Counted from the first letter of the stretch, positions 1 through 29,398 are shown. The stretch is 64,000 nt of DNA from Verrucomicrobiota bacterium (GCA_016199985.1 JACQFQ010000065.1:39482-103481); one strand, 5' to 3'. Made by a program: numbers and translations. The notes: generated from the sequence alone by a model not told the origin.

Positions 1-624
1 CGAAACGCCGCCCGCGATCGCGAGGTCGCACTGATAGGTGAGCAAGGATTGATGCGCGAGCGTCACGGCGACTAGGGAGCTCGAGCAGGCGGTGTTGACG
101 CTGATCGCGGGCCCGCGCAACCCCAGCTTGTACGCCACCCGAGTCGCGAGATAATCCTTGTCGTTCCCGAGCGTCGCCTGGTCGTGGCCCACCAGGTCCA
201 AAAGGTCCGGACGCGCCCGCAATACGTGCGAAAAGTAGGTGTTGGAGGACGCGCCCGCGAACACTCCCACGGCTCCGGCAAACCGTCCCGAGGCGTATCC
301 GGCGTCCTCCAAAACCTGCCACGCCGACTCGAGGAACACGCGCTGCTGCGGGTCCATCACCTCGGCTTCCCGAGGCTGGATTCCAAAGAACGCCGCGTCG
401 AACCATTCGGCGTCCCGTAAAATGCCCCTCGCCGGAACATAATCGCCCGCGCGACGAAGAGCCTCGGGATCGAGGCCTTCGGAGCGAAGCTCCTCGTCCG
501 TGAAGAACGAGACGCAGTCCCGCGCCGCGATCAGGTTCGCCCAGAACTCAGAAACGGAGCCCGCGCCGGGGAAACGGCCGCTGAGGCCGATGATCGCTAC
601 TCCTTCATGGATGGGACTCTCCAT
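1..624 (-). CDS. Type I polyketide synthase, N-terminal ketosynthase (KS) domain; partial, continues beyond the left window edge
   Basis: Not in the ORF track because it runs off the edge. The minus-strand frame from ATG at 624-622 reads MESPIHEGVAIIGLSGRFPGAGSVSEFWANL...MDPQQRVFLESAW...GPAISVNTACSSSLVAV...AIAGGVS with no stop down to nt 1. This is the typical KS N-terminal half, including the active-site Cys motif TACSSS. The start lies 4 nt after the stop of the upstream NRPS gene. Confidence 0.85.
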   Translation of the reverse strand, partial: MESPIHEGVAIIGLSGRFPGAGSVSEFWANLIAARDCVSFFTDEELRSEGLDPEALRRAGDYVPARGILRDAEWFDAAFFGIQPREAEVMDPQQRVFLESAWQVLEDAGYASGRFAGAVGVFAGASSNTYFSHVLRARPDLLDLVGHDQATLGNDKDYLATRVAYKLGLRGPAISVNTACSSSLVAVTLAHQSLLTYQCDLAIAGGVS

Positions 625-628
625 GGAA

Positions 629-3600
629 TCAAGCGTGCTCCCGGTTGGAACGAAAACGCCGAGTCGCCTCGCGCTGCCGCTTCGCGCGGTTGGCCGACGC
701 GGCCGACGCCGCGGAATCGGGCGAGGAACCCGCGCCTCCCGAGGCCGTCGACGCCAGGTGTCGGGACAAGCCCCTGATCGTGGGATGATGAAACAGCGTC
801 ACCAGCGGAAAATCCAACCCCAGCTCCCCGCGCAGCCGGTGATGCAGCCGGACCATCAGAATCGAATGCGCGCCCAGGTCGAAGAAATTATCCTCAACGC
901 CGATGTTCTCGACCTTCAGCAGCTCCTGGCAAATTCGAGCGATCAATTGCTCGTTCTCGGTCGAGGGCCGCGCCATGCCCGCGGCGCGCTCCAATCTCTG
1001 AATCCCCGGCCGCGGCAGGGCGGCGCGATCGACCTTTCCGTTGTTCGTGAGCGGGACCCGCTCGAGAAACACAAACGCCGAGGGCGTCATGTAGTCGGGA
1101 AGCTGCCTCCGCAGATGCTCGCGGAGGTCCGCAGCTGTCGGAGGTTCGCCCTGCGCGGCCACGTAAGCGGCCAACCGTTTCTCGCCCGGTTCATCCTCCC
1201 GCGCGAGCACCACCGCTTCGCGCACCGCGGGATGCTGGCACAGCACGGACTCGATCTCGCCCAGCTCGATCCGAAATCCGCGGATCTTCACCTGTTGATC
1301 CATTCGGCCCAGATACTCCACATCCCCGCCGACGAGGAAGCGCGCCTGATCGCCCGTTCGATAGAGCCGTCCTCCGGCAGCCCCTTTCCACGGATGCGGA
1401 ACAAAACGCTCCGCGGTCAGCGCGTCGCGCCTCAGATATCCGCGCGCCACCCCATCGCCGCCGACGTAAATCTCGCCCGGCACACCGATCGGCGAAGGAT
1501 TCCCATGCGCGTCGAGGATATGGAACTCCAGATCCGGAATCGGGACGCCGATCACGCTGGGCTTCTCAACATCGGCCATGGAGAGCGGTCGATACGTGAC
1601 ATGCACCGTCGTCTCGGTGATGCCATACATGTTGATCAGCCGCGGCGTCTGGTCGCCGCGCCGTTCAAACCAGGGCTTCAGGCTCCGCATCTCCAGGGCT
1701 TCCCCGCCAAACACGACATATCGCAAGGCCATCGGCTTCGGTCCAGCCAGCCCATCCACGTGGATCAATTGCCTGAACGCCGAGGGAGTCTGGTTCAACA
1801 CCGTCACCCGCTCGCGGACGAGCAGCTCATGGAACATCTCGGGGGAACGGGAGGTCATGTAGGGAACCACCACCAGCCGTCCGCCATAAAGCAACGCGCC
1901 CCAGATCTCCCAGACGCTGAAATCGAAAGCGGCCGAGTGGAACAGCGTCCACACATCGTCGGCGTTGAACCCGAACCAGGACTCCGTCGCGCGCATGAGC
2001 CGCGCGACATTCCGATGCGTCACCATGCATCCCTTCGGCTTGCCGGTGGACCCCGAGGTGTAGATCACGTAAGCCAGATGCTCGGGGGCGACCCGGACAT
2101 CGGGCCCCACATCCCCCGCGCGCCCCGAACACTCGACGTCTTCCACAAACACCACCGTTGTGTTCGCGGGCAGCGGCGGCAGCGAGGCCGCCAGCGATCG
2201 TTGCGTCAGCAGCACCGGCGCCCGCGCGTCCTCGATAATGAAACCCAGTCGTTCCGCGGGGTAACTCAGGTCGATCGGCAGGTAGCCTCCGCCCGCCTTC
2301 AACACAGCCAAAAGCGAAACCACCAGATCGTTCGTCCTCTCCACACAAAGCCCCACCAGCTTGTCCGGACCGATCCCCAGCTCCGCCAATCGATGCGCCA
2401 GCGCGTTCGCTCGTCGATTGAGCCCTTCATAGCTGAGGCTCTCGCGTTCGTCGCTCAGAGCGACGGCTTGCGGCGTTCGCCTGACCTGTCTCTCGAACAG
2501 CTCGTGCAGGCACATCGCCTCGGGATACGACGCCCGGGGATGGCTGAAGCCCGCGTCCAGCATCCGCCTCTCGGACTCCGACAGCATCGGCAGCCGTCCC
2601 AACGCCGCCTCGGGCGTTCGACAACCCGCGGACAGAAGGTTCTCAAAATGCTCCAAAATACGCGCCGCCGTGGCGGGGCAGAACAAGCTCGTGTTGTACT
2701 CCAAACCCAACGCATAGCCCTCCGGTCCGGGCGTCACCTCGAGCACCAGGTCGAACTTCGCGCCGCCATTGTGGGCGCGAAGAGGTTCGGTTTTCAGTCC
2801 TTCAATCGACAATCCGATCGCCGGAGTGTTTTGGAACACCAGCATCACCTGAAACAAGGGCGTGCGGCTCAAATCGCGACCCAGTTGAAGCGCCTCCACC
2901 AGCTGTTCGAAGGGCAGCCCCTCGTGAGCCAGCGCCTCCATCGCCGTCAGGCGAACGCGTCGGACCTGATCGCGGAACGCCGTCTCGCCGGCGACCTCGT
3001 TGCGCACAACGACGGTGTTCACAAAGCATCCCGCCAACTCCTCAAACACGGGATGCGAACGGCCCCACACAGGCGTCCCCACGAGAACATCGGTCTGGCC
3101 GGTGTAGCGATGCAGCAACGCCTGGAAGGTCGCCATCAACACGGCAAACGGAGTCGCTCGCTCGGTCCGCGCCAACGTTTCGACGCTTGCCCGCGTTGAG
3201 GCCGGAACAGTCCGGAACTCCAGCGCGCCTTCGTAGCTCAGCACGGCGGGACGCGGCTTGTCGGTGGGCAGTTCGAGGGACCCCGGGGGGTTCGCCAGCT
3301 GGCGGAGCCAATAGGCCAGATCCTCCGCGCAGCGCCCCGCGCCCAGGCGCTCCCGCTGCCATGCCGCGTAGTCCGAGTAGCGGCGCGTCAACGCAGTCCA
3401 TGCGGGCCTGCCCCCTTGCGCCGCGGCGACGTAGGCCTCCGACCACTCACGCAGCAACACGCTCATCGACCAGCCGTCCGCCGCCATGTGATGCGCCGTC
3501 CACAGGCAGAAATGCTCCCGATCTCCCACCGAGACCACGCGACAGCGGAGCAGCGGGGTCTGCGCCAACGAGAAAGGGGCGCGGGCCGCCTCCTTCACCC

Positions 3601-6007
3601 GTTCCATCGCGGTCTCCTCATCCGGAACCTGGACTCGATCGACGCGGCAAGCCGGCTGGCGATCCAAGCGCGCGACGCGAAGGCCTTCTCGAAATTCGAC
3701 GGCCGTTCGCAGCGGCTCGTGACGCTCCACCACCGCGGCCATGGCGCGCTCCCAGGCGCCAAAGTCCAAAAGGCCCGTGATCCGGAGCCCGACGCAGATG
3801 TTATAGGCTTCTCTGCGCGGGATGAACTCGTCGAGAAAGGCCATCCGCTCCTGCGCCAGCGACAACACCTCTTCTGCGGCGCGAGGCACGGCCTCGCGAT
3901 CGGATCCCAGGCTCGCGTCCCGAAGCAGCGCGGCAAGGCCGACGACGCAAGGCGATTGAAACAGCTGTGACAGAGACAGCCTCACACCCAGCTCAGCGCT
4001 AATCCGGGAAACGATCTGGGCCGCTTGAACAGAATCGCCGCCCAGCTCGAAAAAGTCATCCTCCACGCCAATGGGCGCCACGCGCAGCGCCTCCTCGCAC
4101 AGCGACACCAGGCGGCGCTCAAGCTCCGTTTGCGGAGCCGCGTAAGTCTCCGAGGACAAGCCCCGCTCGCGCAAAAGGGTTCTCCGCATGGCTCGTCGGA
4201 CCGCGGGCTCGGTGTCCAAGGCCTCGGCGATGGCCTGAAAATCGCAGCTCCCCGCCTGCGCGACGGAAGTTGTCGCCGCGCGTTTCCCCAGGAACACCTC
4301 CTCCACGAAGCTCGTCGAGTCGGGAGCAAACGTCAGGCGCGACGCCTCGAGCGCCGAGACCCGGAAGACCCCATCCGATCCTGCGAACGCGCCCAGCCCC
4401 CTCAGGAAGCTCGCCACGGGCTCGTTGCGATCGGTCGCGTTGAATCGGATCGCCAGGGCGTCCAGGCCGGACTCCAGGGCTTCCTTTCCCAAACGAGCGA
4501 GCATGGCGTGCTCGACGCCTTTGCCCAAGGCCCGACAGCTGAGGAGAAAACTCTCCACCACCAAGTCCCGCCCGTCGCGCTGGAACACAGCCAGCCCAAC
4601 CTCGCCATAATCTCCGAACCGATCCGTCGCGCGCGCCAGGAGCGCCGCGTGACCAGGCTGTTCGATCCAGGACTTCAGCTCGGCTGACGTTCGCCTAACC
4701 GTCGTCGTGTTGAATTGATTGGTTCGCTGGGTGAGCTGCGCGGCCCTGTCCAGGGACGTCGCCGAGAGAGGAGCGAAAGAGACCTGGAGCTGGAGGCCGG
4801 CGATAAACTCGCTGAACGAGGCGGCGCTCGCGCGCGATTGTTTGCGTTCGGCAATCTGTCGATACTGCTCGGTGCGGTCGCGGTCGGACTCGGTGGCCGG
4901 CGGCAGATCCAGCGCCCAGAAGTGCTCCAACCGCCGCGCGGCCGCGTCGGCGTCCGCTGGAATGTGAAGCACTGAAACGCCGGGACATCGCGCCTCCACC
5001 TCAGCGCACTCCACCGGGTTGTCGTCGATGAACACGAAGCTGTCGACGCCCAGATCCAATTCGGCGGCAAGCTCGCGCAGGTTCTCCGACTTCGATCGCC
5101 AGTTCACCCTCCACGCGACAAAGTCGGACCGCTTCAGCCGCATCTCCGTCCTCCCGAAGGCGGCCAGCGCGTCCGCCTCCTGATTCTTGCTGAGAAGGGC
5201 AAGCAACATCCCCGATTGTTGACGTGATTTGAGCAGTCGCTGCAGACGCAGCCGTCCCGGACCCAGGACGATGTGGGACGCGCCGCTCTCGCCCACCACG
5301 CCATCCCAGAGCGTCTGATCCGCGTCAACGGCGATGACTTTCCGCGGCGGTTGAAAAAGAGGCCGCACTCGCCGCATCAACAAGGTTCCGAGAACATTCC
5401 AGTAAGCGGTCGAGAACGGGATATGCCACTCGCGGTCGGCCTCAGCGTCCTCCACCAGATCCACGGGGTAAAGCCGAGCCAGTTCATCATGGTCGAGGAC
5501 CACCACCGCCCGCAAACCGCGCAACGAAGCGGCGAGCGACTCTGTCAGGTCTCCCAGAAACGGATCCACGGCCTTTGCAGAGCCTCCAGCGGATGAAGGC
5601 CTCGCGACAAACACCAGCGAGGCTCGAGAGGCTCGAGCCTGGAAGCTGGCGAAAGCGGCCAGCCACTCCGTCGCCGCGGCCTCGATCACACGACGGCGAT
5701 CGGACTCGGCGGCATTGCGACCCCAATCTTCAACGCGGACCAGAAACAGATTCGCCCCGGGAGTCGACGCCGCGCTGTCGTTCCCAGGCATCAGCAACTC
5801 CTGGATGAGGTGATTGTAGGGGGAAAACGAGATAGTGGCATCGGGCCAACCGAGGCGCCGCGACCAGAACTCCAGGGACGGACGAAGGGGCTCCGCCGTG
5901 AAGTTGGCGGATACTCGAAAATAGAACGCCAACCCCGAACGATCCAAGCGATTTTGCGGCTCGGAACGAACCAGGTCGTCGATGGATCGGTGATCAGCAG
6001 CGGGCAT
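629..6007 (-). CDS. Non-ribosomal peptide synthetase loading/first module, domain order FkbH-like - T - C - A - T (1792 aa)
   Basis: ATG at 6007. HAD DxDxT motif VIAVDADQTLWDG and FkbH-type SCRALGKGVE. Carrier motifs FFELGGDSV and FFDLGAHSI. Condensation motif HHMAADGWS. Adenylation cores LAYVIYTSGSTGKPKG, FDFSVWE, NMYGITETTVH, YRTGD, KIRGFRIELGEIE, NGKVDR. Confidence 0.92.
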   Translation of the reverse strand: MPAADHRSIDDLVRSEPQNRLDRSGLAFYFRVSANFTAEPLRPSLEFWSRRLGWPDATISFSPYNHLIQELLMPGNDSAASTPGANLFLVRVEDWGRNAAESDRRRVIEAAATEWLAAFASFQARASRASLVFVARPSSAGGSAKAVDPFLGDLTESLAASLRGLRAVVVLDHDELARLYPVDLVEDAEADREWHIPFSTAYWNVLGTLLMRRVRPLFQPPRKVIAVDADQTLWDGVVGESGASHIVLGPGRLRLQRLLKSRQQSGMLLALLSKNQEADALAAFGRTEMRLKRSDFVAWRVNWRSKSENLRELAAELDLGVDSFVFIDDNPVECAEVEARCPGVSVLHIPADADAAARRLEHFWALDLPPATESDRDRTEQYRQIAERKQSRASAASFSEFIAGLQLQVSFAPLSATSLDRAAQLTQRTNQFNTTTVRRTSAELKSWIEQPGHAALLARATDRFGDYGEVGLAVFQRDGRDLVVESFLLSCRALGKGVEHAMLARLGKEALESGLDALAIRFNATDRNEPVASFLRGLGAFAGSDGVFRVSALEASRLTFAPDSTSFVEEVFLGKRAATTSVAQAGSCDFQAIAEALDTEPAVRRAMRRTLLRERGLSSETYAAPQTELERRLVSLCEEALRVAPIGVEDDFFELGGDSVQAAQIVSRISAELGVRLSLSQLFQSPCVVGLAALLRDASLGSDREAVPRAAEEVLSLAQERMAFLDEFIPRREAYNICVGLRITGLLDFGAWERAMAAVVERHEPLRTAVEFREGLRVARLDRQPACRVDRVQVPDEETAMERVKEAARAPFSLAQTPLLRCRVVSVGDREHFCLWTAHHMAADGWSMSVLLREWSEAYVAAAQGGRPAWTALTRRYSDYAAWQRERLGAGRCAEDLAYWLRQLANPPGSLELPTDKPRPAVLSYEGALEFRTVPASTRASVETLARTERATPFAVLMATFQALLHRYTGQTDVLVGTPVWGRSHPVFEELAGCFVNTVVVRNEVAGETAFRDQVRRVRLTAMEALAHEGLPFEQLVEALQLGRDLSRTPLFQVMLVFQNTPAIGLSIEGLKTEPLRAHNGGAKFDLVLEVTPGPEGYALGLEYNTSLFCPATAARILEHFENLLSAGCRTPEAALGRLPMLSESERRMLDAGFSHPRASYPEAMCLHELFERQVRRTPQAVALSDERESLSYEGLNRRANALAHRLAELGIGPDKLVGLCVERTNDLVVSLLAVLKAGGGYLPIDLSYPAERLGFIIEDARAPVLLTQRSLAASLPPLPANTTVVFVEDVECSGRAGDVGPDVRVAPEHLAYVIYTSGSTGKPKGCMVTHRNVARLMRATESWFGFNADDVWTLFHSAAFDFSVWEIWGALLYGGRLVVVPYMTSRSPEMFHELLVRERVTVLNQTPSAFRQLIHVDGLAGPKPMALRYVVFGGEALEMRSLKPWFERRGDQTPRLINMYGITETTVHVTYRPLSMADVEKPSVIGVPIPDLEFHILDAHGNPSPIGVPGEIYVGGDGVARGYLRRDALTAERFVPHPWKGAAGGRLYRTGDQARFLVGGDVEYLGRMDQQVKIRGFRIELGEIESVLCQHPAVREAVVLAREDEPGEKRLAAYVAAQGEPPTAADLREHLRRQLPDYMTPSAFVFLERVPLTNNGKVDRAALPRPGIQRLERAAGMARPSTENEQLIARICQELLKVENIGVEDNFFDLGAHSILMVRLHHRLRGELGLDFPLVTLFHHPTIRGLSRHLASTASGGAGSSPDSAASAASANRAKRQREATRRFRSNREHA
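758..961 (-). other. Carrier (T/PCP) domain 2 (aa ~1683-1750)
   Basis: DNFFDLGAHSILMVRL, Ser1715. Confidence 0.8.
1013..2515 (-). other. Adenylation (A) domain (aa ~1165-1665), Thr-like specificity code
   Basis: Core motifs A1-A10 are readable. The hand-extracted 10-residue code is D1362 F1363 W1366 N1405 V1432 G1434 M1460 V1468 H1469 K1658 = DFWNVGMVHK. This is 1 residue off the classical Thr code DFWNIGMVHK. Confidence 0.75.
2588..3874 (-). other. Condensation (C) domain (aa ~712-1140)
   Basis: LSLAQERMAFL (C1-like) and HHMAADGWS (HHxxxDG, aa 839-845, nt 3473-3493). Boundaries are approximate. Confidence 0.8.
3923..4135 (-). other. Carrier (T/PCP) domain 1 (aa ~625-695)
   Basis: DDFFELGGDSVQAAQI; the phosphopantetheinyl Ser659 codon is at 4031-4033. 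Confidence 0.8.
4313..5950 (-). other. FkbH-like (HAD-IIIC) domain of the NRPS (aa ~20-565)
   Basis: DADQTLW (HAD motif I, aa 228-234), FIDDNP (aa 326-331), QRTNQFN, LLSCRALGKGVE (Cys491). Boundaries are approximate. Confidence 0.75.
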
Positions 6008-6241
6008 CAGCCTAACCGTCCCGGACGCTCATGTGCGTGACTGGGCGATTTGTTGATACTGGGTTCTGCGCATGATGGCAAGCCTCCGGAAAGGGAGGCG
6101 TTGGAAACATCGGCAGATGACGGCGCGACCTAATGCCCGTCCCTGGTTTTGGACGCTGAGAAGCCCCCTTTTGACGCCCTGGGGAGCTCGCGCAAAGATC
6201 TGGGTTGAGACTCGCGATGCGATGCCGATGTCGCTCTTGGA

Positions 6242-7294
6242 ATGACGGAAGGGGCCCCACGAAGGATCTGTCTGGCAATGCTCGTCGCGGCGCTGTGCGC
6301 TTCGGCTGACGAACCCGCGCCGATTCCTGGCTCGAAGCCGTCGACGAACTCCTCCCCGGAGGCCCTGCTCGCGCGGATCGACGAAGTCCTTCGGGCCATT
6401 CCCGACACCGAGGAGCGCGCCCGCCAGTTCCCGGAAATGAAGGCGCGCTTCCTCGAATCCTATCCGCGGGATCCGTTGCGATGGCAGCTCCGGTTCATGG
6501 AGGCCATGCTGGCGGCCCAAAACGACGAGAGCGAAAAGCAAACGGCGGCGGAGGCGATCTTCAAGGAAATCCTGGACTCCCCCGAGAGCCCCGCCCCCCT
6601 GAAATCCAAGGTCAGCGGCCTGATTCTCGCGTTTCGGTACAAAACATTTCTCGAAAAGAAATGCGCGCTCAAACCGTTCCAGGAGGCGGTGGAGAGCCAC
6701 CTCAAGAGCCATCCCAACGCGGAAGGCAACGACCAATACGCGCGGTGGCTGATGGAGGCCGTCACCCCGATCGAGGCGAACGCTCGCGCCCGGAAGCTGG
6801 AGGAACTCACTCGCAGCGGCATCCCGCATCTGGCGCGCGCGGCCAAGGAGAGGCTGGAGCTGCTCGCGAGACTGGAGGATCTCCGCAAAAAGCCAATGGA
6901 GATGCGATTCACCGCCCTGGATGGACGCGAGGTGGACCTGTGCGCCCTTCGCGGCAAAGTGGTGCTGCTCGATTTCTGGGCGAGCTGGTCGTTGGAGTCT
7001 CTCGCCTTGCTCCCGAGCCGGATTGCCGCCTACTCAAAGCTCAAGGATCGCGGGTTCGAGATCGTGGGCATCTCGTTCGATGAGGACAGGCAGAGTCTTC
7101 TCGAGATGCTCGCGGCGAAACAGATCACGTGGCCGCAGTTCTTCGATGGCAAGGCGCTCCGCAATCCCATGGGCGCGCGATATGGGATCGAGGGGCTGCC
7201 GGTGTCCTGGCTGCTGGATCGGAAAGGAATGGTCGTGAACACGGATCTGGTGACGGGCCTCGAGCGGGAGGTTGAAAAACTGCTGGCCAAGTAG
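6242..7294 (+). CDS. Secreted TlpA/ResA-like thioredoxin-fold protein with a helical N-terminal domain; the CxxC active site is replaced by SxxS
   Basis: Signal-like N-terminus RRICLAMLVAALCASA. The C-terminal 130 aa match the TlpA pattern GKVVLLDFWASW...KDRGFEIVGISFDED...ITWPQFFDG...YGIEGLPVSWLLDRKG, but the motif reads WSLES instead of WCxxC. Confidence 0.75.
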   Translation: MTEGAPRRICLAMLVAALCASADEPAPIPGSKPSTNSSPEALLARIDEVLRAIPDTEERARQFPEMKARFLESYPRDPLRWQLRFMEAMLAAQNDESEKQTAAEAIFKEILDSPESPAPLKSKVSGLILAFRYKTFLEKKCALKPFQEAVESHLKSHPNAEGNDQYARWLMEAVTPIEANARARKLEELTRSGIPHLARAAKERLELLARLEDLRKKPMEMRFTALDGREVDLCALRGKVVLLDFWASWSLESLALLPSRIAAYSKLKDRGFEIVGISFDEDRQSLLEMLAAKQITWPQFFDGKALRNPMGARYGIEGLPVSWLLDRKGMVVNTDLVTGLEREVEKLLAK

Positions 7295-7324
7295 CCCCGC
7301 GGTGGGGAAGGGTCCACGCGTCAC

Positions 7325-8098
7325 ATGTCGACACCTTCGCGCCTGAGAGTTCTGGTCACCGGTTCGGCGGGCCGGCTCGGATCCGCCGCCGTGCGCGCCT
7401 TGAAAGAACGCGGCCACTTCGTTCGCGGATTGGATCAAGTCCCGACGCCCGCGGCTTCCGAATCGTGGGTGGGTTCCCTCTCCGAGCGCGACCTTCTCGC
7501 GCGAGCCACCGAGAGCATGACCGCGCTCGTTCACCTGGCCGCCGCGCCCGACGATTCGGATGAGCCCGATTTCTTCCAGCGCGTTCTGGTGCCCAGCAAC
7601 ATCCTGGGGGTCCATAACATCCTCGAAGCGGCGCGCGAAAGCGGGATTCCGCGCGTCGTCCTGGCCAGCTCAGGACAGGTGAATTGGACGCAGCAATACG
7701 ACGGCCCGTTGCCCGTCCGCGCCGCGGACCCCACAACCCCGCGACATTGGTACGCGGCCACGAAGATGTTTCTCGAGTCGGCGGGCTACAGCCTGGCCAA
7801 GAATCACAACCGATCGGTGATCGCCGCGCGGCTGGGATGGTGTCCCCGGCGCGGTCAGGCGCCCGACATCGCAAAGAGCGCCGTGGCTCAGGACCTGTAC
7901 TTCAGCCCCAAGGACGCTGGACGGTTTTTCGAGCGAGCCGTCTCGGCCGATGTGCCTGTGGGATTTCATGTGCTTTACGCCGCAAGCCTCCCCTTGCGCT
8001 CTTCGATTTTCGAACTGAAGCCCGCGATGGACCTCCTTCAATGGCAGCCGGAGGAGCGCTGGCCCACGGGGGCGGAGGACGACCTTCCGCCATGCTGA
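7325..8098 (+). CDS. NAD(P)-dependent epimerase/dehydratase family (SDR) protein
   Basis: Rossmann motif VLVTGSAGRLGSA near the N-terminus and the YAATK (YxxxK) catalytic motif. Confidence 0.8.
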   Translation: MSTPSRLRVLVTGSAGRLGSAAVRALKERGHFVRGLDQVPTPAASESWVGSLSERDLLARATESMTALVHLAAAPDDSDEPDFFQRVLVPSNILGVHNILEAARESGIPRVVLASSGQVNWTQQYDGPLPVRAADPTTPRHWYAATKMFLESAGYSLAKNHNRSVIAARLGWCPRRGQAPDIAKSAVAQDLYFSPKDAGRFFERAVSADVPVGFHVLYAASLPLRSSIFELKPAMDLLQWQPEERWPTGAEDDLPPC

Positions 8099-8231
8099 TG
8101 CATTCGTCGAGTCCGCGGCGGTCCACTCTCCGTGTCCCCCGGCTAAGAAAGCCGCGAAACACCCGCCGCTCCGCGACCTGATCCTCGTGGCCAGTGGCGC
8201 AGCTCCGACCGCGAATCCTTTTCGCCAAGGC

Positions 8232-9359
8232 CTAAAGTTCGTAGGCGATCAAGACGCACTCAATAAAGGCAATGGCGGCTCCGGTCGATCGGACGACCGC
8301 GCGCAGTTTGTATGTGTGCGTTCCCTTTCCCGGAAAATCGATGAAGGAGAATGCCGAGGGAGGATACTGGATGTTGCCCACCGGGTTGTCGTCTCTTCCG
8401 GCGTACATCGACGTCAGATCCTCCCCGTCCCGAGAAAAAACAAAGCGCCCAATGGGAAAGTCCCCGTTCGACGAGTAGAGATCGACCGCCGACTCCTTCG
8501 CCTTGGGTGGAGAGCCCAGTGTCACGATCACCGGCCGGCCGGTTGTTGTGATCGTCACGTGCAAGTTGGTCACGTCGCTGAGGGTCGTGGCCCCAAAATC
8601 GCCCATAGGGTAGGGGCCAGTGGAGGCGGACATGGCGACGCCCCCCGGAAGATCACTGTTCAGCGGGCGGGGCGCGAGCTTCTCAAAAGTCACCGCGTTC
8701 GCGGCCAGTTGCGCTCCTCCAATGGCGGAGTCCGCGACCTGGTTTGAAGAGATCGTGCGCGCCGCGATCAGGCCGGCGTGTATCTGCAGCGGAGCAATCT
8801 GATTGGAGGTGACGGCGCCATTGGCGATTTGACTGGATGTGATGCTGTTTGTTTGGATCCTCGAGCCGTCCAATCGTCCTCGGGAAGGATCATTCACGCC
8901 AAAGACTGAGCTCCAATCGTAGCCGGCGAGCTTGCGGCTATCCGAGGATTCCTTGGCGAAAACCACGGGAAGAATCGCCTGACGGGGCGACATCGGAGGA
9001 TCGGAAGCGTCGATCACGTTGTCCGGTCCGCCTCCGGGGCCGCCGACGTCAACGGTGATCTCCAGGTAAAGCGGCTGGTCGAAGTCAAAATCAAGAGGAT
9101 TCTTCGAGCCGAGAAGCACGTTCACCAGCCCGCCGTTTATGGTCGTCCGATGCACTTCGCCCGACCACACCGGACTTCCACCGGCGGGCGCGCCAAAAAT
9201 CTTGAATTGCGCCAACCGCGGCCCGTCGCTCACCGCGCGGCCTGAGGGATCGACGAGTCGACCTTGAAAAGGAAGCAGCCGGGGAGCCGCCTGCGCCGAC
9301 GAACGCGATGGGCAAAGACAACATGCCGCAAACGCCGCGAAGAGTAGATAGTTTTTCAT
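8232..9359 (-). CDS. Secreted cell-surface protein with I-x-x-G-A-V-T-x-x-x-I type repeats (tail-fibre-like); function unknown
   Basis: Signal peptide MKNYLLFAAFAACCLCPSRSSAQA. N-terminal LPFQGRLVDPSGRAV...VWSGEVH...GLVNVLLGS pattern. Repeats SITSSQIANGAVTSNQIAPLQI / ISSNQVADSAIGGAQLAANAVTFEKLA. Confidence 0.6.
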   Translation of the reverse strand: MKNYLLFAAFAACCLCPSRSSAQAAPRLLPFQGRLVDPSGRAVSDGPRLAQFKIFGAPAGGSPVWSGEVHRTTINGGLVNVLLGSKNPLDFDFDQPLYLEITVDVGGPGGGPDNVIDASDPPMSPRQAILPVVFAKESSDSRKLAGYDWSSVFGVNDPSRGRLDGSRIQTNSITSSQIANGAVTSNQIAPLQIHAGLIAARTISSNQVADSAIGGAQLAANAVTFEKLAPRPLNSDLPGGVAMSASTGPYPMGDFGATTLSDVTNLHVTITTTGRPVIVTLGSPPKAKESAVDLYSSNGDFPIGRFVFSRDGEDLTSMYAGRDDNPVGNIQYPPSAFSFIDFPGKGTHTYKLRAVVRSTGAAIAFIECVLIAYEL

Positions 9360-9658
9360 GATGAACGAGCCGACGAGTTCACGCCTCCCTGCGCGCCGCG
9401 CTCTAGGACGCCGAGGCTCGCCTCAAGCGGGCATGCAGGTCGAGAAAGATCCTGAGACCGGTCGAGGAAAAGTCAGACGGCGGCCGAACGGATCGACGCT
9501 CCCATCTCTCCTAAGGAAGGGTTCGAATACGGTCAGTTTGTGAGGGTGGACCTTGACCTGGCAAGTTTCGCCCTGCCGTTCATGACTGAATCGCGAGCGG
9601 AGCGCGGCTTGAGACTTCGCGAACGAAGGGCAACCTGGGTCGTCGCCAGACTCGCCGA

Positions 9659-12445
9659 TCAAGTCAGGACGAAACCGCCCACGGATTCGCGCAGCCGCGC
9701 TTCGATGAATTGCTGACGGTGCAGAGACGTGATCTTCCCTCCGTCGCTGTCCATCACATAGAAGCTGTCCAAGGCCGCCCCGTGCTCCGTGATGATCTTC
9801 GCGAGCTGAATATCCAGGCGAAGCTCGGCGAAGACCTCCGCGATCTCGTAGAGCAGGCCGAGGCGATCCTCCGTCTCGATGTCGATGACGGTGCTGTCCT
9901 CGGAGGTGGCATTGTCGAATCGGATCGCGGTCGGCAGCGCCTGCCCCTCCAACCAGGCTCGCTCCAGCCTCTTCGTTGAGGACGAAGGCCGCAGCAGCGC
10001 CTGACGAAAGTCGACCTTCTCCCCGCTCAACGCGCGCAGCAGCAGCTCTTCAAACCGCTGCCGCTCCTCCTTCGTCACCGCGGTCCCCGTGCGTCCGCTC
10101 GTGCTTTCGAAGGAATCCAGGGCCAGGCCGTCGGCCCGGCTGAAAATCTGGGCGCTCAGGATGTTGATCCCCGCGGCCGCGAAGGAGCCGGCGATGCGGC
10201 TGAACAGCCCGGGCCGATCCCATGTGCATGCTCGCAGCCGGGTCAACCCGCGGTCCGGCTCGTTGTGCCAGTCCAGCACGGGCTCCAGCGCCTCCTGGCC
10301 CGCCTCCACCTGCTTGTGCATGAAGCGATGGCTGAGGGTGACGTCGACCGCGATCTGCCGAGCCTGGTAGATGCGGAAGTACCGCCGGGGGAGGTTCTCA
10401 AAATGCGCGCCCACCTCCTCGGGACCGATCGTGCGGGGCAGCATCCTTTGGACCTCCTCTCGCAGGAGCTCCCGCTCGCGCGCCTCCGCCATAAGAAACT
10501 CCGTCTTCCCGGACAGCTGCGTCAGGGCCTTGTTGTGCAGCGTCCAGAGCAACGAGTCCTTGAATCCGTTCCAGAGCCGATCGCTGGTGGCCAGCGAGTC
10601 GACGTAGGTGTGCAACGTGAGGAGGGACAGATGCTCCGCCGACTGCACCACGCCGGCGAAATGGCGCACGACCGCGGGATCCTCCAGGTCGCGGCGCTGG
10701 GACACGACGGCCATCGTGAGGTGTTGCTCGATCAGCAGCCGGAGAGTGTGGGTGAGCGCCCCATCGAGTTCCAGCCGCCGCGCCACGCGCTCGGCCAGCT
10801 TGCTGCCCGAGTCGGAGTGGTTGCCGTCGTGCTCCACCTTGCCCGCGTCATGGAGCAGCAGGGCCAGATACAGCAGATAGGGCTTGTCCAACCCGTGGAG
10901 CAGCTCGGAGTAGGGCTCCTCGATGGGAGCGCTCGGCTTCCACAGGGCGTCCAGCTTCTCGAGGCACATGAGCGTGTGCTCATCCGTGGTGTATTGATGG
11001 AAAAACTCGTGCTGCACCAAATTCGTCAGCCGTCCGAACTCCGGAATGTACTTTCCCAGCAGCCCCGTCTCGTGCATGGCCCGCAGAATGGGGGCGACGC
11101 TGCCCGGATGATTGATGATCTCCAGAAAGCTTTCCCGAACATGGGCGTCCTTGAGGAACGAGCGATCCACGAGGCGAAGATTGTTGCGGATGAGCTGGCT
11201 GAGATCGGGATGGATCTTGAGGCCTCGCTGCTGCGCATGAAGGAACGCGCGCATGAGCCGGCGCGGCTGATCGTTGAAAATGCGCGCCCCGCTGGCGCGG
11301 ATCGTGTCCTGATCGAAACGGAAACCGTCGACGGTCGCGTCTTCATCCGGCTTGCGTTTGAGGGGCAGGAGGCTGCGCAGCGAGATCATGCGCCGGGGCT
11401 TGGGGAGCAGCGCGAGGCGATCCTCCACGTTCCGGGTGATCACGGAGATATTCCGCGAGTGGGTGTAGTAATCCCCCATGAACCTTTCGATGCGCTGGCT
11501 CGGCGAACGATCGGTGTACCCGAGGTGCGTGGCGATCGCCGGCTGAACAGCGCGGGTCAGGGAGTCCTGCGCCCGGTTCACATGGTAGTGGAGGTCCGTC
11601 CGCACCCGGAGGAGGAAATCGTATCCCGTCTCGAGTTGACGCCGCTCCATCTCGGAGATCATGCCCTTCTGCTCCAGCTCCACCAGGGATCGGGTGCCGT
11701 GCTTGAAAAACGCCATCCATCGCAGGTTCTGGAAATCGCGCAGCCCGCCGCTGCCGTTCTTGATGTTGGGCTCCTGCATCGTCGCGGAGTTCCCGTGCCG
11801 GGAGCGACGGCTGTTCTGATCTTCGAGACGGAGGGCGATGTACTCTTGCTCGTGCCCCGCCACGCATTTGACGAGCACCGTGCGCTGATACTTTCTGAAC
11901 AGCTCCTCGTCGCCGATCAACAACCGCGATTCGATCAGCGACGTCTTCGACATCATGTTGGCGTTGGCCACCTGCACGCAGTCGTTGATGTCACGGACCG
12001 AATGCCCCACCTTCAGCCCCAGATTGAAGAGCGGCAACAGCACCCCGTCGAAAAACTTGGAGAGATGAGGGAGCGGCTTGCTCCCGGCCGCCACCTGGCC
12101 GGAGTGAAGCACCATGATGTCGATATCGCTGTGAGGATTGAGCTCCTGCCGTCCGTAACCGCCGATGGCGACCAGAGCGAGCGGTGGAAACTCCCGCTGC
12201 GCCTGGGGGGAAAGCGTGTTGCGCGTTGCGATCCAGAGATGCCTCAGGACTTCATCGAGCACACAGGCGCGCGCCTCGCAAATCTCCAGCCCGCCCCCTC
12301 CCGACCGATGACGGATCCGCAAGCGGGCCGTTTCCACCTTCAGGAAATTCTTGAATCGCTGCTCCTCGTCGGCCACGGAGGCGCCCGGAGGCAGCTTCAG
12401 CTTCTCGGCGGCGCGCGCGCGGATCGACTCGCTCAAACTCTGCAT
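9659..12445 (-). CDS. glnD: [Protein-PII] uridylyltransferase / uridylyl-removing enzyme
   Basis: Nucleotidyltransferase motif AIGGYGRQELNPHSDIDIMVLH, HD domain LLLHDAGK, and two C-terminal ACT-like segments. The 928-aa length is typical. Confidence 0.93.
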   Translation of the reverse strand: MQSLSESIRARAAEKLKLPPGASVADEEQRFKNFLKVETARLRIRHRSGGGGLEICEARACVLDEVLRHLWIATRNTLSPQAQREFPPLALVAIGGYGRQELNPHSDIDIMVLHSGQVAAGSKPLPHLSKFFDGVLLPLFNLGLKVGHSVRDINDCVQVANANMMSKTSLIESRLLIGDEELFRKYQRTVLVKCVAGHEQEYIALRLEDQNSRRSRHGNSATMQEPNIKNGSGGLRDFQNLRWMAFFKHGTRSLVELEQKGMISEMERRQLETGYDFLLRVRTDLHYHVNRAQDSLTRAVQPAIATHLGYTDRSPSQRIERFMGDYYTHSRNISVITRNVEDRLALLPKPRRMISLRSLLPLKRKPDEDATVDGFRFDQDTIRASGARIFNDQPRRLMRAFLHAQQRGLKIHPDLSQLIRNNLRLVDRSFLKDAHVRESFLEIINHPGSVAPILRAMHETGLLGKYIPEFGRLTNLVQHEFFHQYTTDEHTLMCLEKLDALWKPSAPIEEPYSELLHGLDKPYLLYLALLLHDAGKVEHDGNHSDSGSKLAERVARRLELDGALTHTLRLLIEQHLTMAVVSQRRDLEDPAVVRHFAGVVQSAEHLSLLTLHTYVDSLATSDRLWNGFKDSLLWTLHNKALTQLSGKTEFLMAEARERELLREEVQRMLPRTIGPEEVGAHFENLPRRYFRIYQARQIAVDVTLSHRFMHKQVEAGQEALEPVLDWHNEPDRGLTRLRACTWDRPGLFSRIAGSFAAAGINILSAQIFSRADGLALDSFESTSGRTGTAVTKEERQRFEELLLRALSGEKVDFRQALLRPSSSTKRLERAWLEGQALPTAIRFDNATSEDSTVIDIETEDRLGLLYEIAEVFAELRLDIQLAKIITEHGAALDSFYVMDSDGGKITSLHRQQFIEARLRESVGGFVLT

Positions 12446-18941: not shown

Positions 18942-19727
18942 GTGCAGACGAGCGAAGACGCGACATGGCAAGACGTGAGGCAGGATCCGACGGGGTTTCC
19001 CCCGCTCGAATTGAAGAGCGCTCACGTCTGGCGCCTGGAAGTGTCGGCAACCCTGGGCTGGCTGAGGTCCGCCGATCAAATGCTGAACGCCGAGGAGCGT
19101 ATACGAGCCGACCGTTTCCATTTCGAGCAAGACAGGAGCCGGTTCGCCCTCTGTCGCGCGGCTTTGCGCCTTCTCCTGGGTCGCTACCTCGCCGCGGATC
19201 CCGGGTCCATCCGCTTTCAATACGAGGAACACGGCAAGCCCAGGCTATCGGATGACAACAGGCGGTCATCAGGGTCGCTGGAATTCAACGTGTCCCATTC
19301 GGGAGACCTGGCGCTGATGGCATTTGGCCGATCCGGACCTCTGGGTGTGGACGTCGAACGACTACGCGGGGAGATCGAGATGCAAGCCCTGGCTGAGCGG
19401 TTCTTCTCTCCACAGGAGGTGGCCGAGCTGAACGCCCTTCCGCCGGCGGAAAGGGCTGTCGGCTTTTTCAACTGCTGGACGCGCAAGGAGGCCTATGTGA
19501 AAGCGCGGGGACAGGGCCTGAGCTTGGGGCTCGATTCGTTCGCCGTCACCCTCAGGCCGGGGGTCGCTCCGGCGCTCGCGTGGTCGAGGCAAGGATCCGG
19601 GGAGACGTCATCGTGGCGGCTCTGGGATCTCCCGACGCCCGCTGGATACCGCGCGTCCCTGGCCTCCCCGGCCGAGGTCCAGGCCCTACGCCTGTTTTCG
19701 TTCGCTCCCGATGGCCGCTTGTCATGA
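18942..19727 (+). CDS. Sfp-type 4'-phosphopantetheinyl transferase
   Basis: GTG start. ERIRADRFHFEQDRSRF, GKPRL, FNVSHSGDLALMAF, GVDVE, FFNCWTRKEAYVKARG (W/KEA motif). Confidence 0.85.
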   Translation: MQTSEDATWQDVRQDPTGFPPLELKSAHVWRLEVSATLGWLRSADQMLNAEERIRADRFHFEQDRSRFALCRAALRLLLGRYLAADPGSIRFQYEEHGKPRLSDDNRRSSGSLEFNVSHSGDLALMAFGRSGPLGVDVERLRGEIEMQALAERFFSPQEVAELNALPPAERAVGFFNCWTRKEAYVKARGQGLSLGLDSFAVTLRPGVAPALAWSRQGSGETSSWRLWDLPTPAGYRASLASPAEVQALRLFSFAPDGRLS

Positions 19728-21452: not shown

Positions 21453-24400
21453 ATGGCGAAGGTGTCGAGCAAGAACGGACGTTCCTCACGGTACTCCTCC
21501 AGCACGAAGTACGACGCGCACCACACGGTGCTGTCGAAGACTTACGGCGCGCTGGCGGACCTCAGGCGAGAGCTCGCCGAGCCGAAGTCGCGGGTATCGG
21601 AGCGTGAAGAATTGTTAAAGCTGCTGGCGGATTGCGCGGATTCGCAACGCGCCTGGCTGCTGCTGGAGGACTATTTCGAGCGGCTCTCGCTCTCTCGAAA
21701 GGATTTCGGCGGGCAGGAGTGGTGGGCGCGCATTATGTCGGCCCGCGGCCGCGAGCGGATCGAGGAGGTCGCGATGCTTTTCCTCCGCGCCCAGCGTTCC
21801 CTGCCGACCGAGCTGCAGCCCTTCGCCAACGCGGCGAGGTTCGCGGAGATTGAACAGGCCGAAGCCGAGCACCGCAGCCTCCAGGCCCTTGAGCATTGGA
21901 TGTTCCCTCCCACTCCCACCCATCTCGACTCGCCGCGCGCCAGCATCAAGGTCCTCTGCGAGATCGTCCCGATGCCGGAGAGCCCCACGCTGCACCGCCT
22001 CGACGTTCGCATCAGCCTCAACCGGCCGCGCACCGGGGAGAAGGTGCGATCGATCGCCGAGATCGTGGATCTGCAGACCCGCGCGGCCCACGAACAGGAG
22101 CTGTTTCCCCCCATGGATTGGGATTTCATCCAGTGGGTGACGGCTTTGCACAAAGAGGACCCTCCCGAGTCCGAAGTCCTGTCCCTCACCGGAATGGAGC
22201 TCCTGCGCTGGCTCTGTCGATGGGGAGCGCAGGGTCGGCTCGAGATGTCCAAGAAGCCGCTGCTGTTTGAGGGACAGGTCCTCGGGTTGAACCCGGAGCT
22301 CACGCCGGCGAAGGGCGGATTGGAGTTCACCCACCGGGTCCAGATCGCCCAGGGCGAGCAGAAGAGCTTGTCCGATGTTCGGTTTTTCGCCGGCGAGCCG
22401 GTCATGGCGCTCGTCGATAACCGCGTCTACGTCGTTCGAAACTCGCCTCCCCCGGCGCTGATTGAGTTCTGGGGACGCACTCCGTCGGTCCCCGTCGGCA
22501 AGTTGAGCACCCGGATGCGCTCGCAGCTGCGACGCAGCTTTAGCGGCGCGGGCTCGAGTTGGGATTCCTTGTGCGTCACGCACACAGCGACCGCGCAATT
22601 CGTGTTCGAGCTCGCCGAGGACACCGTTCGCCTTCGCCTGCTCGCGCGGACGGATCGCGCCAAGACCGTCTGGCACTGGACGGGCCAGGAATGGCAGCTG
22701 GATCAGCCCCACGCCGCGACGTCGGACAAGGCCGAGGTATTGGAGGATCCCCGGCTGGACGAAGCGGTCGCGTGGCTGCGCCGACTCGATTGGTTCACGC
22801 CGGAGCCCGGCGTCTGGGTCGGCGACGCGAATGAAAACTTTTTGGGAGTGCTGGCCACCGTCTGGCCATTCAAGCCCGCGTCCGCCGAGTTTCTCGCCAA
22901 TCAGGCTTTCCAACGCCTCTTCATGTCCCCGCGACAGCTGCGTCCCACCTTGATCGTCAAGGGCAGCGGCATCGACTGGTTCACGGTCTCCGCCGAGTGG
23001 GAGCAGGAGGGCATGCGCCTCACGCCCGCGGATCTGCAGCGCCTGCAGAGCGCGACAGGACGCTTCGTCAAGCTGCCCGACGCCGGATGGGTCGAGCTCG
23101 ACACCCGCGCGGTGGCCACGGCGCACGAGGCCATGGCGGACCTCGGACTGGAGACGCTCAGCGCCCAGCCGCAGAAGGTCGGCATGGAGCAGGCGGCGCA
23201 TCTGGACGAGGAGGCCTTCAAGCGCTTTGCCGACACAGGCGAGGCCAAGACGCTCCGATCCAAGCTCGCCGACTTCGAGGGAATTCCCAAGGTGGCGGTG
23301 CCCAAGCAGGTCGACGCCGAGCTGCGACCTTATCAGCACGAGGGCTTCGCCTTCCTTTGCCACCTCACCCAGCTCAAGCTGGGCGGGATCCTGGCCGACG
23401 ACATGGGTCTGGGGAAAACCCTGCAGACCCTCACCTGGCTGGCCTGGCTGCGTGAGAAAAACATCAAGCATCCCAAGCCCGCGCTGGTGATCTGCCCCGC
23501 GTCGGTCCTGCACAACTGGCGTCGGGAGGCGAATCGATTCGCGCCGCAGCTTCGGGTGCTCGTCCTGGAGAGCGGCTCCGCCCGCCACAACCTGCGGAAG
23601 CAAATCCCCCAGCACGACCTGATTGTCACGAACTACTCGCTGCTGCGACGCGACCTCGAAGCGCTCCAAAAATTCCCGTTTGGGGCGCTGATTCTCGACG
23701 AGGCCCAGTTCATCAAGAATCCGACGGCCCAGGTCACGCAATCCGTGAAACAGCTCAAGGCCGACCAGCGGATAGCCCTCACCGGCACCCCGCTCGAGAA
23801 CCGACTGCTGGATCTGTGGAGCATCGCTGATTTCATCCAGCCCGGATACCTGGGAAATCAGGAGCATTTCGCCCAGACCTACGACCCTCGCGGAGAGGGC
23901 GAGGAGGGCGAGATCGCGCAACGCGTCGCGCGGCGCCGCCTGTCGGCCAAGCTGCGTCCGCTCATGCTCCGCCGCTTGAAGCGGCAGGTCGCAAAGGACC
24001 TGCCCGAACGCATCGAGGTCCGGCGCGACTGCGAGCTGGGCGAAGAGCAGCGCAAGCTGTATCTGGCCGAACTGCGCCGCAGCCGGGAGCAGATCATGCA
24101 GGCGGTCGCCGAGAAGGGCCTCATGAAGAGCAAGATTCATGTGCTCGCCGCGCTCACCCGGCTCCGACAAATCTGCTGCCATCCGCGCCTCGTGGGCAGC
24201 GACACCGCCTCGGGGAAGACCGAGACGCTCATGGAGCTTCTCGAGCCCTTGCTGGAGGAAGGCCAGAAGGTTCTCGTCTTCAGCCAATTCGTCCAGATGC
24301 TGCGGCTGATGGAAGGCGAGTGCGCCGCGAGGCAGATTCCAACGCACATTCTCACCGGCGAATCGAAGGAACGTCAGGAGATCGTGCAGTCATTCCAGAA

Positions 24401-24719
24401 CGACCCGCGCTCCGGAGTGTTTCTCCTCAGCTTGCGGGCCGCGGGCACGGGCTTGAATCTCACGACGGCGAGCTATGTGATTCTGTACGATCCGTGGTGG
24501 AATCCCGCGGTCGAAGCGCAGGCGATCGATCGCTCCCACCGAATCGGCCAGACGCGCACCGTCCACGCCTATCGGCTCATCGCCCCTGGCACCGTCGAGG
24601 AGAAGATCTGGGAACTGCAGCAGCGCAAAGCGAGAACCATCTCGGATGTTCTCGGCGAAGAAGGCTTCGCCCGGAGCCTGTCCAAGGACGACCTCGAATA
24701 CCTGTTTTCCGAAGACTGA
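21453..24719 (+). CDS. SNF2-family DEAD/H helicase with a ~620-aa N-terminal extension
   Basis: LRPYQHEGFAFL, ILADDMGLGKTLQT (motif I), LILDEAQFIKN (motif II), LTGTPLENRL, VLVFSQF, LSLRAAGTGLNLTTASYVILYDPWWNPAVEAQAIDRSHRIGQ (helicase C). Confidence 0.9.
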   Translation: MAKVSSKNGRSSRYSSSTKYDAHHTVLSKTYGALADLRRELAEPKSRVSEREELLKLLADCADSQRAWLLLEDYFERLSLSRKDFGGQEWWARIMSARGRERIEEVAMLFLRAQRSLPTELQPFANAARFAEIEQAEAEHRSLQALEHWMFPPTPTHLDSPRASIKVLCEIVPMPESPTLHRLDVRISLNRPRTGEKVRSIAEIVDLQTRAAHEQELFPPMDWDFIQWVTALHKEDPPESEVLSLTGMELLRWLCRWGAQGRLEMSKKPLLFEGQVLGLNPELTPAKGGLEFTHRVQIAQGEQKSLSDVRFFAGEPVMALVDNRVYVVRNSPPPALIEFWGRTPSVPVGKLSTRMRSQLRRSFSGAGSSWDSLCVTHTATAQFVFELAEDTVRLRLLARTDRAKTVWHWTGQEWQLDQPHAATSDKAEVLEDPRLDEAVAWLRRLDWFTPEPGVWVGDANENFLGVLATVWPFKPASAEFLANQAFQRLFMSPRQLRPTLIVKGSGIDWFTVSAEWEQEGMRLTPADLQRLQSATGRFVKLPDAGWVELDTRAVATAHEAMADLGLETLSAQPQKVGMEQAAHLDEEAFKRFADTGEAKTLRSKLADFEGIPKVAVPKQVDAELRPYQHEGFAFLCHLTQLKLGGILADDMGLGKTLQTLTWLAWLREKNIKHPKPALVICPASVLHNWRREANRFAPQLRVLVLESGSARHNLRKQIPQHDLIVTNYSLLRRDLEALQKFPFGALILDEAQFIKNPTAQVTQSVKQLKADQRIALTGTPLENRLLDLWSIADFIQPGYLGNQEHFAQTYDPRGEGEEGEIAQRVARRRLSAKLRPLMLRRLKRQVAKDLPERIEVRRDCELGEEQRKLYLAELRRSREQIMQAVAEKGLMKSKIHVLAALTRLRQICCHPRLVGSDTASGKTETLMELLEPLLEEGQKVLVFSQFVQMLRLMEGECAARQIPTHILTGESKERQEIVQSFQNDPRSGVFLLSLRAAGTGLNLTTASYVILYDPWWNPAVEAQAIDRSHRIGQTRTVHAYRLIAPGTVEEKIWELQQRKARTISDVLGEEGFARSLSKDDLEYLFSED

Positions 24720-29396: not shown

Positions 29397-29398
29397 AT

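Follow-up and report, generated by a model that had tools for sequence, protein, structure and literature searches.

FkbH-type loading modules that feed a condensation (C) domain have been proposed for suomilide (SuoB; PMC8609519) and dysinosin (DysB; PMC6520454), as has a glyceric-acid loading domain for the oci cyanopeptolin cluster (PMC2533009). In these systems, FkbH and a carrier (T) domain that open a nonribosomal peptide synthetase (NRPS) load glycerate, which the C domain joins to the first amino acid (FkbH ... T-C-A-T, where A is the adenylation domain). Here we examine a related locus at the left edge of a 64,000-nucleotide stretch of DNA from a Verrucomicrobiota bacterium (GCA_016199985.1, JACQFQ010000065.1:39482-103481), the whole of which we call the window. 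Whereas the cyanobacterial systems contain an extra O-methyltransferase and/or sulfotransferase, usually an epimerization (E) domain, and continue as pure NRPSs to Choi- or Ahp-peptides, the window locus belongs to Verrucomicrobia, is without a tailoring domain, is predicted to use threonine and would hand its chain directly to a polyketide synthase (PKS), probably an aminating one.

Other described systems resemble parts of the locus. In myxobacteria, FkbH domains occur inside the NRPS modules for vioprolide, corramycin and cystomanamide, and the vioprolide FkbH was shown experimentally to handle phosphoglycerate (PMC8949500, PMC10099666). There, too, an FkbH/HAD domain replaces the A domain of an NRPS module and installs glycerate, but the vioprolide and corramycin order is FAAL-ACP-C-FkbH-T, in which glycerate is an acceptor that is O-acylated by an ester-forming C domain, whereas the window FkbH-T pair would be a starter and donor. 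OzmB, FkbH of the FK520 pathway and Tmn16 share with the window protein the TIGR01686 family, the HAD motif DxDxT, a conserved Cys and a predicted conversion of bisphosphoglycerate to glyceryl-S-carrier. However, these proteins serve methoxymalonyl or hydroxymalonyl extenders or tetronates and need FkbG/I/K-type partners, while the window carrier feeds a C domain. The biochemistry of the FkbH family is said to rest on work by Dorrestein and colleagues in 2006.

For the PKS part, the second gene of homologous loci has the same order of ketosynthase (KS), acyltransferase (AT), T, class-III aminotransferase (AMT), C, A and T domains (KS-AT-T-Aminotran_3-C-A-T) as MycA, ItuA and McyE, which act in mycosubtilin, iturin and microcystin synthesis. 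This arrangement turns a β-ketoacyl thioester into a β-aminoacyl unit, which is then joined to an amino acid. In MycA, ItuA and McyE the primer is a fatty acyl or polyketide chain, whereas at this locus N-glyceroyl-Thr would take that place and lead to a vicinal 3,4-diamine, and the module lies off the window. No paper on the two-gene layout or its product was found in the literature searched, the coverage of which was incomplete, with MIBiG outside the comparison.

A probable NRPS-PKS operon at the edge of the window

Positions 1-6007 likely represent the beginning of a hybrid NRPS-PKS operon, comprising two genes or slightly more, from an uncultured member of the Verrucomicrobia, by which glycerate and Thr would be joined and then passed to a PKS. 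The locus is an orphan cluster of an established type, FkbH-primed NRPSs and aminotransferase-containing PKS modules being already known. Its features, with amino acid (aa) positions counted from the start of each gene, are as follows.

629..6007, minus strand: gene 1, NRPS of order NEX-FkbH-T-C-A(predicted Thr)-T (ORF; Pfam; NCBIfam; identical 1136-aa partial protein)
5363..6007, minus strand: NEX region, first ~215 aa (conserved in homologues, xANFTAEP...)
4391..5344, minus strand: FkbH domain, aa 222-539, with HAD phosphatase and acyltransferase subdomains (TIGR01686)
3923..4120, minus strand: carrier T1, approximately aa 630-695, Ser659 in GGDS (Pfam PP-binding and motif; borders approximate)
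2558..3868, minus strand: condensation domain, aa 714-1150, HHMAADG at 839-845 (PF00668)
1034..2497, minus strand: adenylation domain, aa 1171-1658, code DFWNVGMVHK, predicted Thr (PF00501, PF13193, TIGR01733)
755..946, minus strand: carrier T2, aa 1688-1751, Ser1715 in GAHS (PF00550 best stretch and motif)
1..624, minus strand: gene 2, first 208 codons, N-terminal half of a type I PKS KS, Cys180 at window 85-87 (PF00109)

Gene 1 is a single ATG-started open reading frame (ORF) of 1792 aa, as given by the ORF listing and translation, and its codon-position GC of 0.69/0.49/0.78 marks a coding frame. Hidden Markov model (HMM) scans with Pfam and NCBIfam, together with motif searches, gave the order NEX-FkbH/T/C/A/T. 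This is the order FkbH/T/C/A/T that a preliminary description, made from the sequence alone, had assigned to the 1792-aa gene, and all the domains for which it had suggested HMM searches (TIGR01686, PP-binding, Condensation, AMP-binding and ketoacyl-synt) were recovered. The HMM and motif matches in both genes are far above chance, and every catalytic motif of gene 1 is intact, as judged by motif searches and alignment with five homologous proteins (six proteins in all). An 899-aa ORF on the opposite strand (500..3199, plus strand), antisense to the NRPS gene, was rejected as a gene. Because its codon-position GC (0.77/0.47/0.68) mirrors that of the true frame, we regard it as a shadow ORF typical of GC-rich DNA.

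Predicted loading of glycerate and its joining to threonine

The FkbH domain belongs to its family by a TIGR01686 match well above the curated cutoff (283.4 bits against 146.65; E = 2e-84), with aa 222-539 covering profile positions 3-318 of 323. HAD motif I (D228-A-D230-Q-T232), the motifs LLSKN and FVFIDDNP, and the acyltransferase Cys491 (LSCR) are invariant in the six aligned homologous proteins, and an [LMFIV]SCR motif is present in most FkbH-bearing matches. The HAD part aligns to PDB 3slr (BF1531) from residue 222 onward; since the alignment begins only there, 3slr also has an N-terminal part of ~220 residues. The N-terminal ~215 aa of gene 1, the NEX region (PMC12304814), are conserved among the homologous proteins and match no Pfam model. 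A carrier with a phosphopantetheinyl serine (Ser659, GGDS) lies directly downstream of FkbH, after a spacer of only ~90 aa. The domain order proposed earlier, in which the FkbH carrier would feed straight into a C domain, is supported; FkbH is intact and T1 lies right behind it.

Could the loaded unit be something other than plain glycerate? It might be modified on T1, to lactate as for BryA or to hydroxy- or methoxymalonate as for FkbGHIJK, or be O-methylated or sulfated in trans, as for suomilide, dysinosin and cyanopeptolin. Known FkbH systems often bear such tailoring, a sulfotransferase gene comes after a related cassette described below (L162), and genes of the Acyltransferase_3 and JmjC/cupin kinds are found repeatedly beside some homologous clusters (L085, L087 and L163), the left flank of our locus being off the window. 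However, there is no extra domain between FkbH and T1, and the short linker therefore leaves no methyltransferase or sulfotransferase to act in cis. The FkbGHIJK-type neighbors that would mark a methoxymalonyl- or hydroxymalonyl-ACP system (a discrete carrier, FkbK/FkbI dehydrogenases and an FkbG O-methyltransferase) were not found among the scanned genes right of the cluster; FkbH is instead fused to an NRPS module. Nor did the genes scanned over the 58 kb on that side include an FkbG/I/K-like methyltransferase, acyl-ACP dehydrogenase or sulfotransferase, and T1 feeds a C domain and does not serve as an extender-unit carrier. We therefore regard a modified unit as unlikely and favor plain glycerate.

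The condensation domain (PF00668, 307.8 bits, E = 1.5e-91) carries the motif HHMAADG, and the solved chains nearest to it are of the elongation type (5u89, teixobactin Txo1/Txo2, TycC 2jgp and the fuscachelin PCP-C didomain). By these features it is an ordinary elongation-type domain and is predicted to be active. Its N-terminal motif, LSLAQERMAFL, is presumably that of the LCL type, in which the C domain joins two L residues. By default, glyceroyl-S-T1 would be linked to the Thr-S-T2 amino group through an amide bond.

An ester in place of this amide, whether by transfer of glycerate onto the Thr hydroxyl or with a glycerate hydroxyl as nucleophile in the manner of vioprolide, seems to us very improbable. 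C domains that form glycerate-linked esters are documented for vioprolide and proposed for corramycin, but in both of these FkbH-T is an acceptor behind FAAL-ACP-C, whereas here FkbH-T comes first and could act only as donor; moreover, the corramycin C domain behind the FkbH module was itself classed as LCL (PMC8949500, PMC10099666). Although the first amino acid in the protein family is almost always β-hydroxylated (Thr or Ser), which suggests that the hydroxyl matters, the window C domain has a canonical HHxxxDG motif and is closest to standard amide-forming elongation domains.

The adenylation domain that would supply the amino acid for this amide matches PF00501 (AMP-binding, aa 1171-1525, E = 2e-92), PF13193 (AMP-binding_C, aa 1584-1658) and TIGR01733 (446.8 bits), and contains core motifs A3 (TSGSTGKPKG, 1317), A7 (YRTGD, 1549), A8 (GRMDQQVKIRG, 1567) and A10 (NGKVDR, 1656). 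With T2 (GAHS at 1712, Ser1715), gene 1 thus has the HHxxxDG motif, the A core motifs including the A10 lysine, and the T serine of a C-A-T elongation module. Alignment to GrsA-A gave the specificity code DFWNVGMVHK; the GrsA-A reference fragment returns the canonical DAWTIAAIC plus K517 in the alignment. The code is identical at 9 of 10 positions, with one conservative I-to-V change, to DFWNIGMVHK, which we take to be a Thr code. Such code-to-substrate assignments reportedly go back to Stachelhaus and colleagues in 1999. Threonine is the most likely predicted substrate, and each of the five homologous loci examined has a Thr code at the same position. The best 120 database matches included 70 NRPSs with N-terminal FkbH, of which 54 have Thr, 13 Ser and 2 other codes and 1 ends before the A domain, although these counts are biased to Thr, the ranking having used similarity to a Thr-A-domain query. 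The N-glyceroyl (or lactoyl-type) amino acid that had been predicted as the first intermediate is supported by these features, and the specificity code would refine it to N-glyceroyl-Thr.

The ketosynthase gene and its homologues

Gene 1 is followed by a second gene after only 4 nt: the junction reads ...cacgct TGA ttcc ATG gag..., with the stop codon at 631-629 and the next ATG at 624-622. From there, 208 codons without a stop (window 1-624, minus strand) run up to the edge. This fragment matches the ketoacyl-synt N-terminal model PF00109 (195.4 bits, E = 1.6e-57, profile positions 2-202 of 252) and the type I PKS model NF045894 (188 bits), bears the active-site cysteine (Cys180 in NTACSSS) and has the codon-position GC of a coding frame (0.66/0.49/0.80). 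It also shares 71% identity, without a gap as far as the edge, with the beginning of the 2949-aa protein encoded by gene 2 of homologous locus L081, which has the order KS-AT-T-AMT-C-A-T-TE (TE, thioesterase). The preliminary description was thus correct about the 4-nt junction and about a type I PKS ketosynthase (TACSSS) running off the left edge. It had also remarked that this gene is missing from the ORF track, which holds because ORFs that cross the edge, running off the sequence end, are left out of the ORF listing.

We infer that gene 2 is intact beyond codon 208; the catalytic His-His pair, the C-terminal half of the KS, the AT and the carrier are present in L081, L083, L085, L086 and L087. 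If instead the cluster were decayed or truncated, with the KS ending soon past the edge or being a pseudogene, the output of gene 1 would not go beyond a shunt product, for instance hydrolytically released N-glyceroyl-Thr. The KS continuation does lie beyond the left edge, and split PKS/NRPS genes occur in related records (a Pedosphaera parvula KS in 326-aa and 2088-aa pieces, and fragmented C domains in L163). Against this stand the 208 stop-free codons with third-position GC of 0.80, the gap-free 71% identity to an intact homologue up to the edge, the intact catalytic motifs of gene 1 and the preserved tight 4-nt coupling, and we find decay quite improbable. Searches for the missing part gave nothing to the left: the 1792-aa protein has no exact product on record, an exact 40-mer from the window edge matched no metagenome contig, the 208-aa KS fragment found a best match of 72% identity and none of 100% among the matches listed (each of at most 357 aa, long PKS proteins apparently going unranked with so short a query), and the contigs bearing the neighboring SDR gene are all at most 8.3 kb long.

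Full-length homologues of the gene 1 protein, at 44-58% identity, are common, and in six independent homologous loci of this identity range (L081/L082, L083, L085, L086, L087 and L163) the next gene opens with a related KS. This fits the earlier proposal of a cluster that continues leftward. L163 shows no more than the first 105 codons of its KS (63% identical to the window KS). In the other five, the next gene is fully seen, encodes 2665-2977 aa and has the order KS-AT-T-class-III aminotransferase-C-A-T in every case. A TE ends this gene in four loci; in L086 a separate C-A-T-TE gene comes after it instead. Where they do not overlap, the two genes are separated by 1-35 nt. The second A domain has a Gly code in L081 (DILQLGVIWK) and L083 (DILQ-GLIYK) and an Ala code in L085 and L087 (DLFNNALTYK). 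Acyl_transf_3 membrane acyltransferase genes (L085, L163) and JmjC/Cupin_8 genes (L087, L163) flank some of the homologous clusters and may encode tailoring enzymes; no such gene is seen on the right side of the window cluster.

There is also a sister class of about 45 proteins of ~2780 aa (e.g., L087:15317-18346), in which FkbH-T-C-A(Thr or Ser)-T is followed by E (TIGR01720)-C-T, without an A domain, before the KS gene. The C-T pair that lacks an A domain might dehydrate the β-hydroxy residue or be loaded in trans.

Two wider scans covered looser relatives. A KS-anchored metagenome scan gave 69 loci, 54 of them with a KS at least 50% identical, mostly at other NRPS-to-PKS junctions; none of the 54 has FkbH upstream and 2 have an aminotransferase domain within 4 kb downstream. 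Since KSs 50-62% identical to the window KS directly follow an NRPS A-T in 33 of the 43 metagenome loci with enough upstream sequence, the window KS is of the NRPS-to-PKS junction type, a pattern as expected of a KS that would accept an aminoacyl or peptidyl chain. A genome-collection scan with the whole gene 1 protein gave 80 loci, all matching only from residue ~460-625 onward (generic C-A-T) and none with FkbH.

P. parvula Ellin514 was considered as a cultured stand-in and rejected, as its related KS sits in a different cluster without FkbH. In this strain (L088:10001-17257; ABOX02000002.1), the KS is 61% identical and is split between a 326-aa and a 2088-aa ORF (KS C-terminal half-AT-C-A-...), by a frameshift or a sequencing error. 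The P. parvula PKS cluster is without an upstream NRPS/FkbH gene, and its assembly line appears to begin at the KS.

Proposed assembly and its meaning

How might the product be assembled? A 4'-phosphopantetheinyl transferase (PPTase), possibly the Sfp-type enzyme encoded at 18942-19727, would convert both T domains to the holo form. NEX-FkbH would take D-1,3-bisphosphoglycerate (or 3-phosphoglycerate), and the HAD site (D228/D230) would remove the 3-phosphate. Glycerate would then be held as a thioester on Cys491 and passed to the phosphopantetheine of T1 (Ser659), while the A domain would load L-threonine on T2 (Ser1715) and the elongation-type C domain would make N-glyceroyl-Thr-S-T2. From there, the chain would move to KS Cys180 of the translationally coupled next gene and be extended by one malonate unit. 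Judged by the homologous loci, this second gene would encode a KS-AT-T-aminotransferase-C-A-T-TE protein of ~2950 aa. By analogy with those loci and with MycA/McyE-type modules, the β-keto group would be transaminated to give a 3-amino-4-(glyceroylamino)-5-hydroxyhexanoyl unit. Addition of Gly or Ala and release by the TE would yield a small pseudo-tripeptide (linear Gly form, C11H21N3O7, calculated 307.138 Da). Release could be by hydrolysis or by cyclization, the latter through attack by the new amine or by a hydroxyl of Thr or glycerate.

Several points weigh against a glycerate-Thr-PKS operon of this form. Every step of the scheme is drawn from homology, and the FkbH substrate, the formation of an amide and not an ester, and expression of the genes are predictions. 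Gene 2 beyond its 208 codons lies off the window and is known only through homologous loci, and for gene 1 the closest homologue whose surroundings are seen reaches only 58% identity. The Thr/Ser counts carry the bias given above, and no sigma-70-like promoter was found in 6008-6241, the only such match lying in coding sequence (5841-5813). In addition, the FkbH-T-C-A(Thr)-T cassette is reused elsewhere, so downstream architecture is not set by gene 1 alone. One example, 44% identical (L162:10001-23101), sits in a larger NRPS-only cluster, where a stand-alone sulfotransferase gene and two C-A-T genes come after it, and a C-TauD protein gene, a C-A-T gene and an SDR gene come before it. The glycerate of L162 is probably sulfated, by analogy with cyanopeptolins.

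We raise, tentatively and with less than even confidence, a broader idea: that the window locus belongs to an as yet undescribed family of compact clusters, widespread among Acidobacteriota, Verrucomicrobiota and Pseudomonadota of soil and groundwater. Its members would have FkbH-T-C-A(Thr or Ser)-T (with or without E-C-T) followed by KS-AT-T-AMT-C-A-T-TE, and would make small glyceroyl-(β-hydroxy amino acid) peptides with a vicinal 3,4-diamine, a scaffold unmatched to characterized natural products. If so, the near-constant Thr/Ser would point to a conserved role of the hydroxyl, for example in cyclization or metal binding. What is added here is a sharper chemical prediction (a glycerate-Thr primer, malonate extension, likely β-amination and a Gly/Ala cap) for a phylum with almost no characterized natural products. 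As the operon type recurs in many uncultured soil and groundwater bacteria of several phyla, one product assignment could cover the family. No concept is changed, and the logic will be unsurprising to specialists.

Right boundary, flanking genes and a close relative

Two further features lie right of gene 1.

6008..6277, no strand: divergent intergenic region, presumed promoter region (sequence; gene calls)
18942..19727, plus strand: Sfp-type 4'-phosphopantetheinyl transferase (PF01648 and PF22624)

Reading rightward from gene 1, the genes encode a ResA/TlpA-like redoxin (divergent), an SDR/epimerase, a 375-aa protein without a family match, GlnD, a Golvesin_C-domain protein, CTP synthase, KdsB, the Sfp-type PPTase and alanine racemase. 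For the redoxin, the longest-ORF ATG is at 6242 and the NCBI call starts 36 nt later, which gives a 270-nt gap. What lies upstream of the homologous clusters varies among the loci, and the right flank is not conserved. Because this flank consists of housekeeping genes that are not conserved among homologous loci, a cluster boundary near 6 kb is plausible and, at best, well supported. The preliminary description had placed both the boundary and the promoter in 6008-6241; the boundary inside the window stands, while the promoter found no support for want of a sigma-70-like match. Rfam and tRNA scans found nothing in the window, and a terminator scan found nothing in the intergenic region. The redoxin, SDR and 375-aa neighbors were considered as tailoring enzymes and rejected, as they are not conserved beside homologous clusters and the redoxin resembles a ResA/TlpA thiol-disulfide oxidoreductase.

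The PPTase gene lies 13 kb right of the NRPS gene, with those for GlnD, CTP synthase and KdsB in between; in homologous locus L085 a PPTase gene comes directly after the PKS gene. The window PPTase may be an activator of the assembly line, although not necessarily a dedicated one.

A close relative is found in a groundwater Verrucomicrobia metagenome-assembled genome (GCA_016178445.1), which encodes a 1136-aa partial protein 100% identical to the N-terminal 63% of gene 1. Its contig JACOTJ010000332.1 (8313 bp), which breaks off within the C domain, is 99.96% identical to window 2599-10911. The assignment of the window to a PVC-type genome is borne out by proteins identical to window proteins that are named "Verrucomicrobia bacterium".

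Other features of the window

Elsewhere in the window, 48446-51895 (minus strand) is one ORF encoding a 1149-aa protein in which the E1alpha (aa 28-324) and E1beta (374-676) parts of a 2-oxoacid dehydrogenase are fused to a lipoyl domain (723-785, with its lipoyl lysine in ESDKA) and a FabH-type KAS III (~846-1147), the last with Cys in AACSG, His in PHQAN and Asn in NGNTSS. The protein contains no E2 catalytic domain. Full-length homologues (47-85% identical) occur across PVC bacteria, in Pirellulales, Gemmataceae, Phycisphaeraceae, the cultured Lignipirellula cremea, Kiritimatiellae and Verrucomicrobiales, and the protein is also 100% identical to a "Verrucomicrobia bacterium" protein; it is encoded on a 105-kb contig as well (locus tag HYR88_02260). 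No paper on an E1alpha-E1beta-lipoyl-FabH fusion was found in the literature searched. One idea is that KAS III receives the acyl group directly from the lipoyl arm on which it is made, and uses it to prime (branched-chain?) fatty acids without passage through acyl-CoA. Although unrelated to the NRPS, this fusion may be the most interesting item in the window.

The region 24001-32000 has a GC content of 0.56-0.59, versus about 0.64 elsewhere. It contains genes for a DnaJ-domain protein (24864-25478), a Sel1-repeat protein (25562-26323) and a beta-helix/Ig-domain protein (29587-31254), whose third-position GC is weak (0.51-0.67). These genes may be recent acquisitions. PNPase (26702-28840), which lies among them, has a normal third-position bias.

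Finally, 32599-39746 (minus strand) encodes a 1625-aa GDSL-lipase/DUF7133/HEAT-repeat protein (34869-39746) and an 866-aa DUF6797 protein (32599-35199). As longest ORFs, the two overlap by 331 nt, and the true start of the DUF6797 protein is therefore probably further downstream. A similar ThuA/DUF7133/HEAT protein adjoins the Pedosphaera PKS locus.

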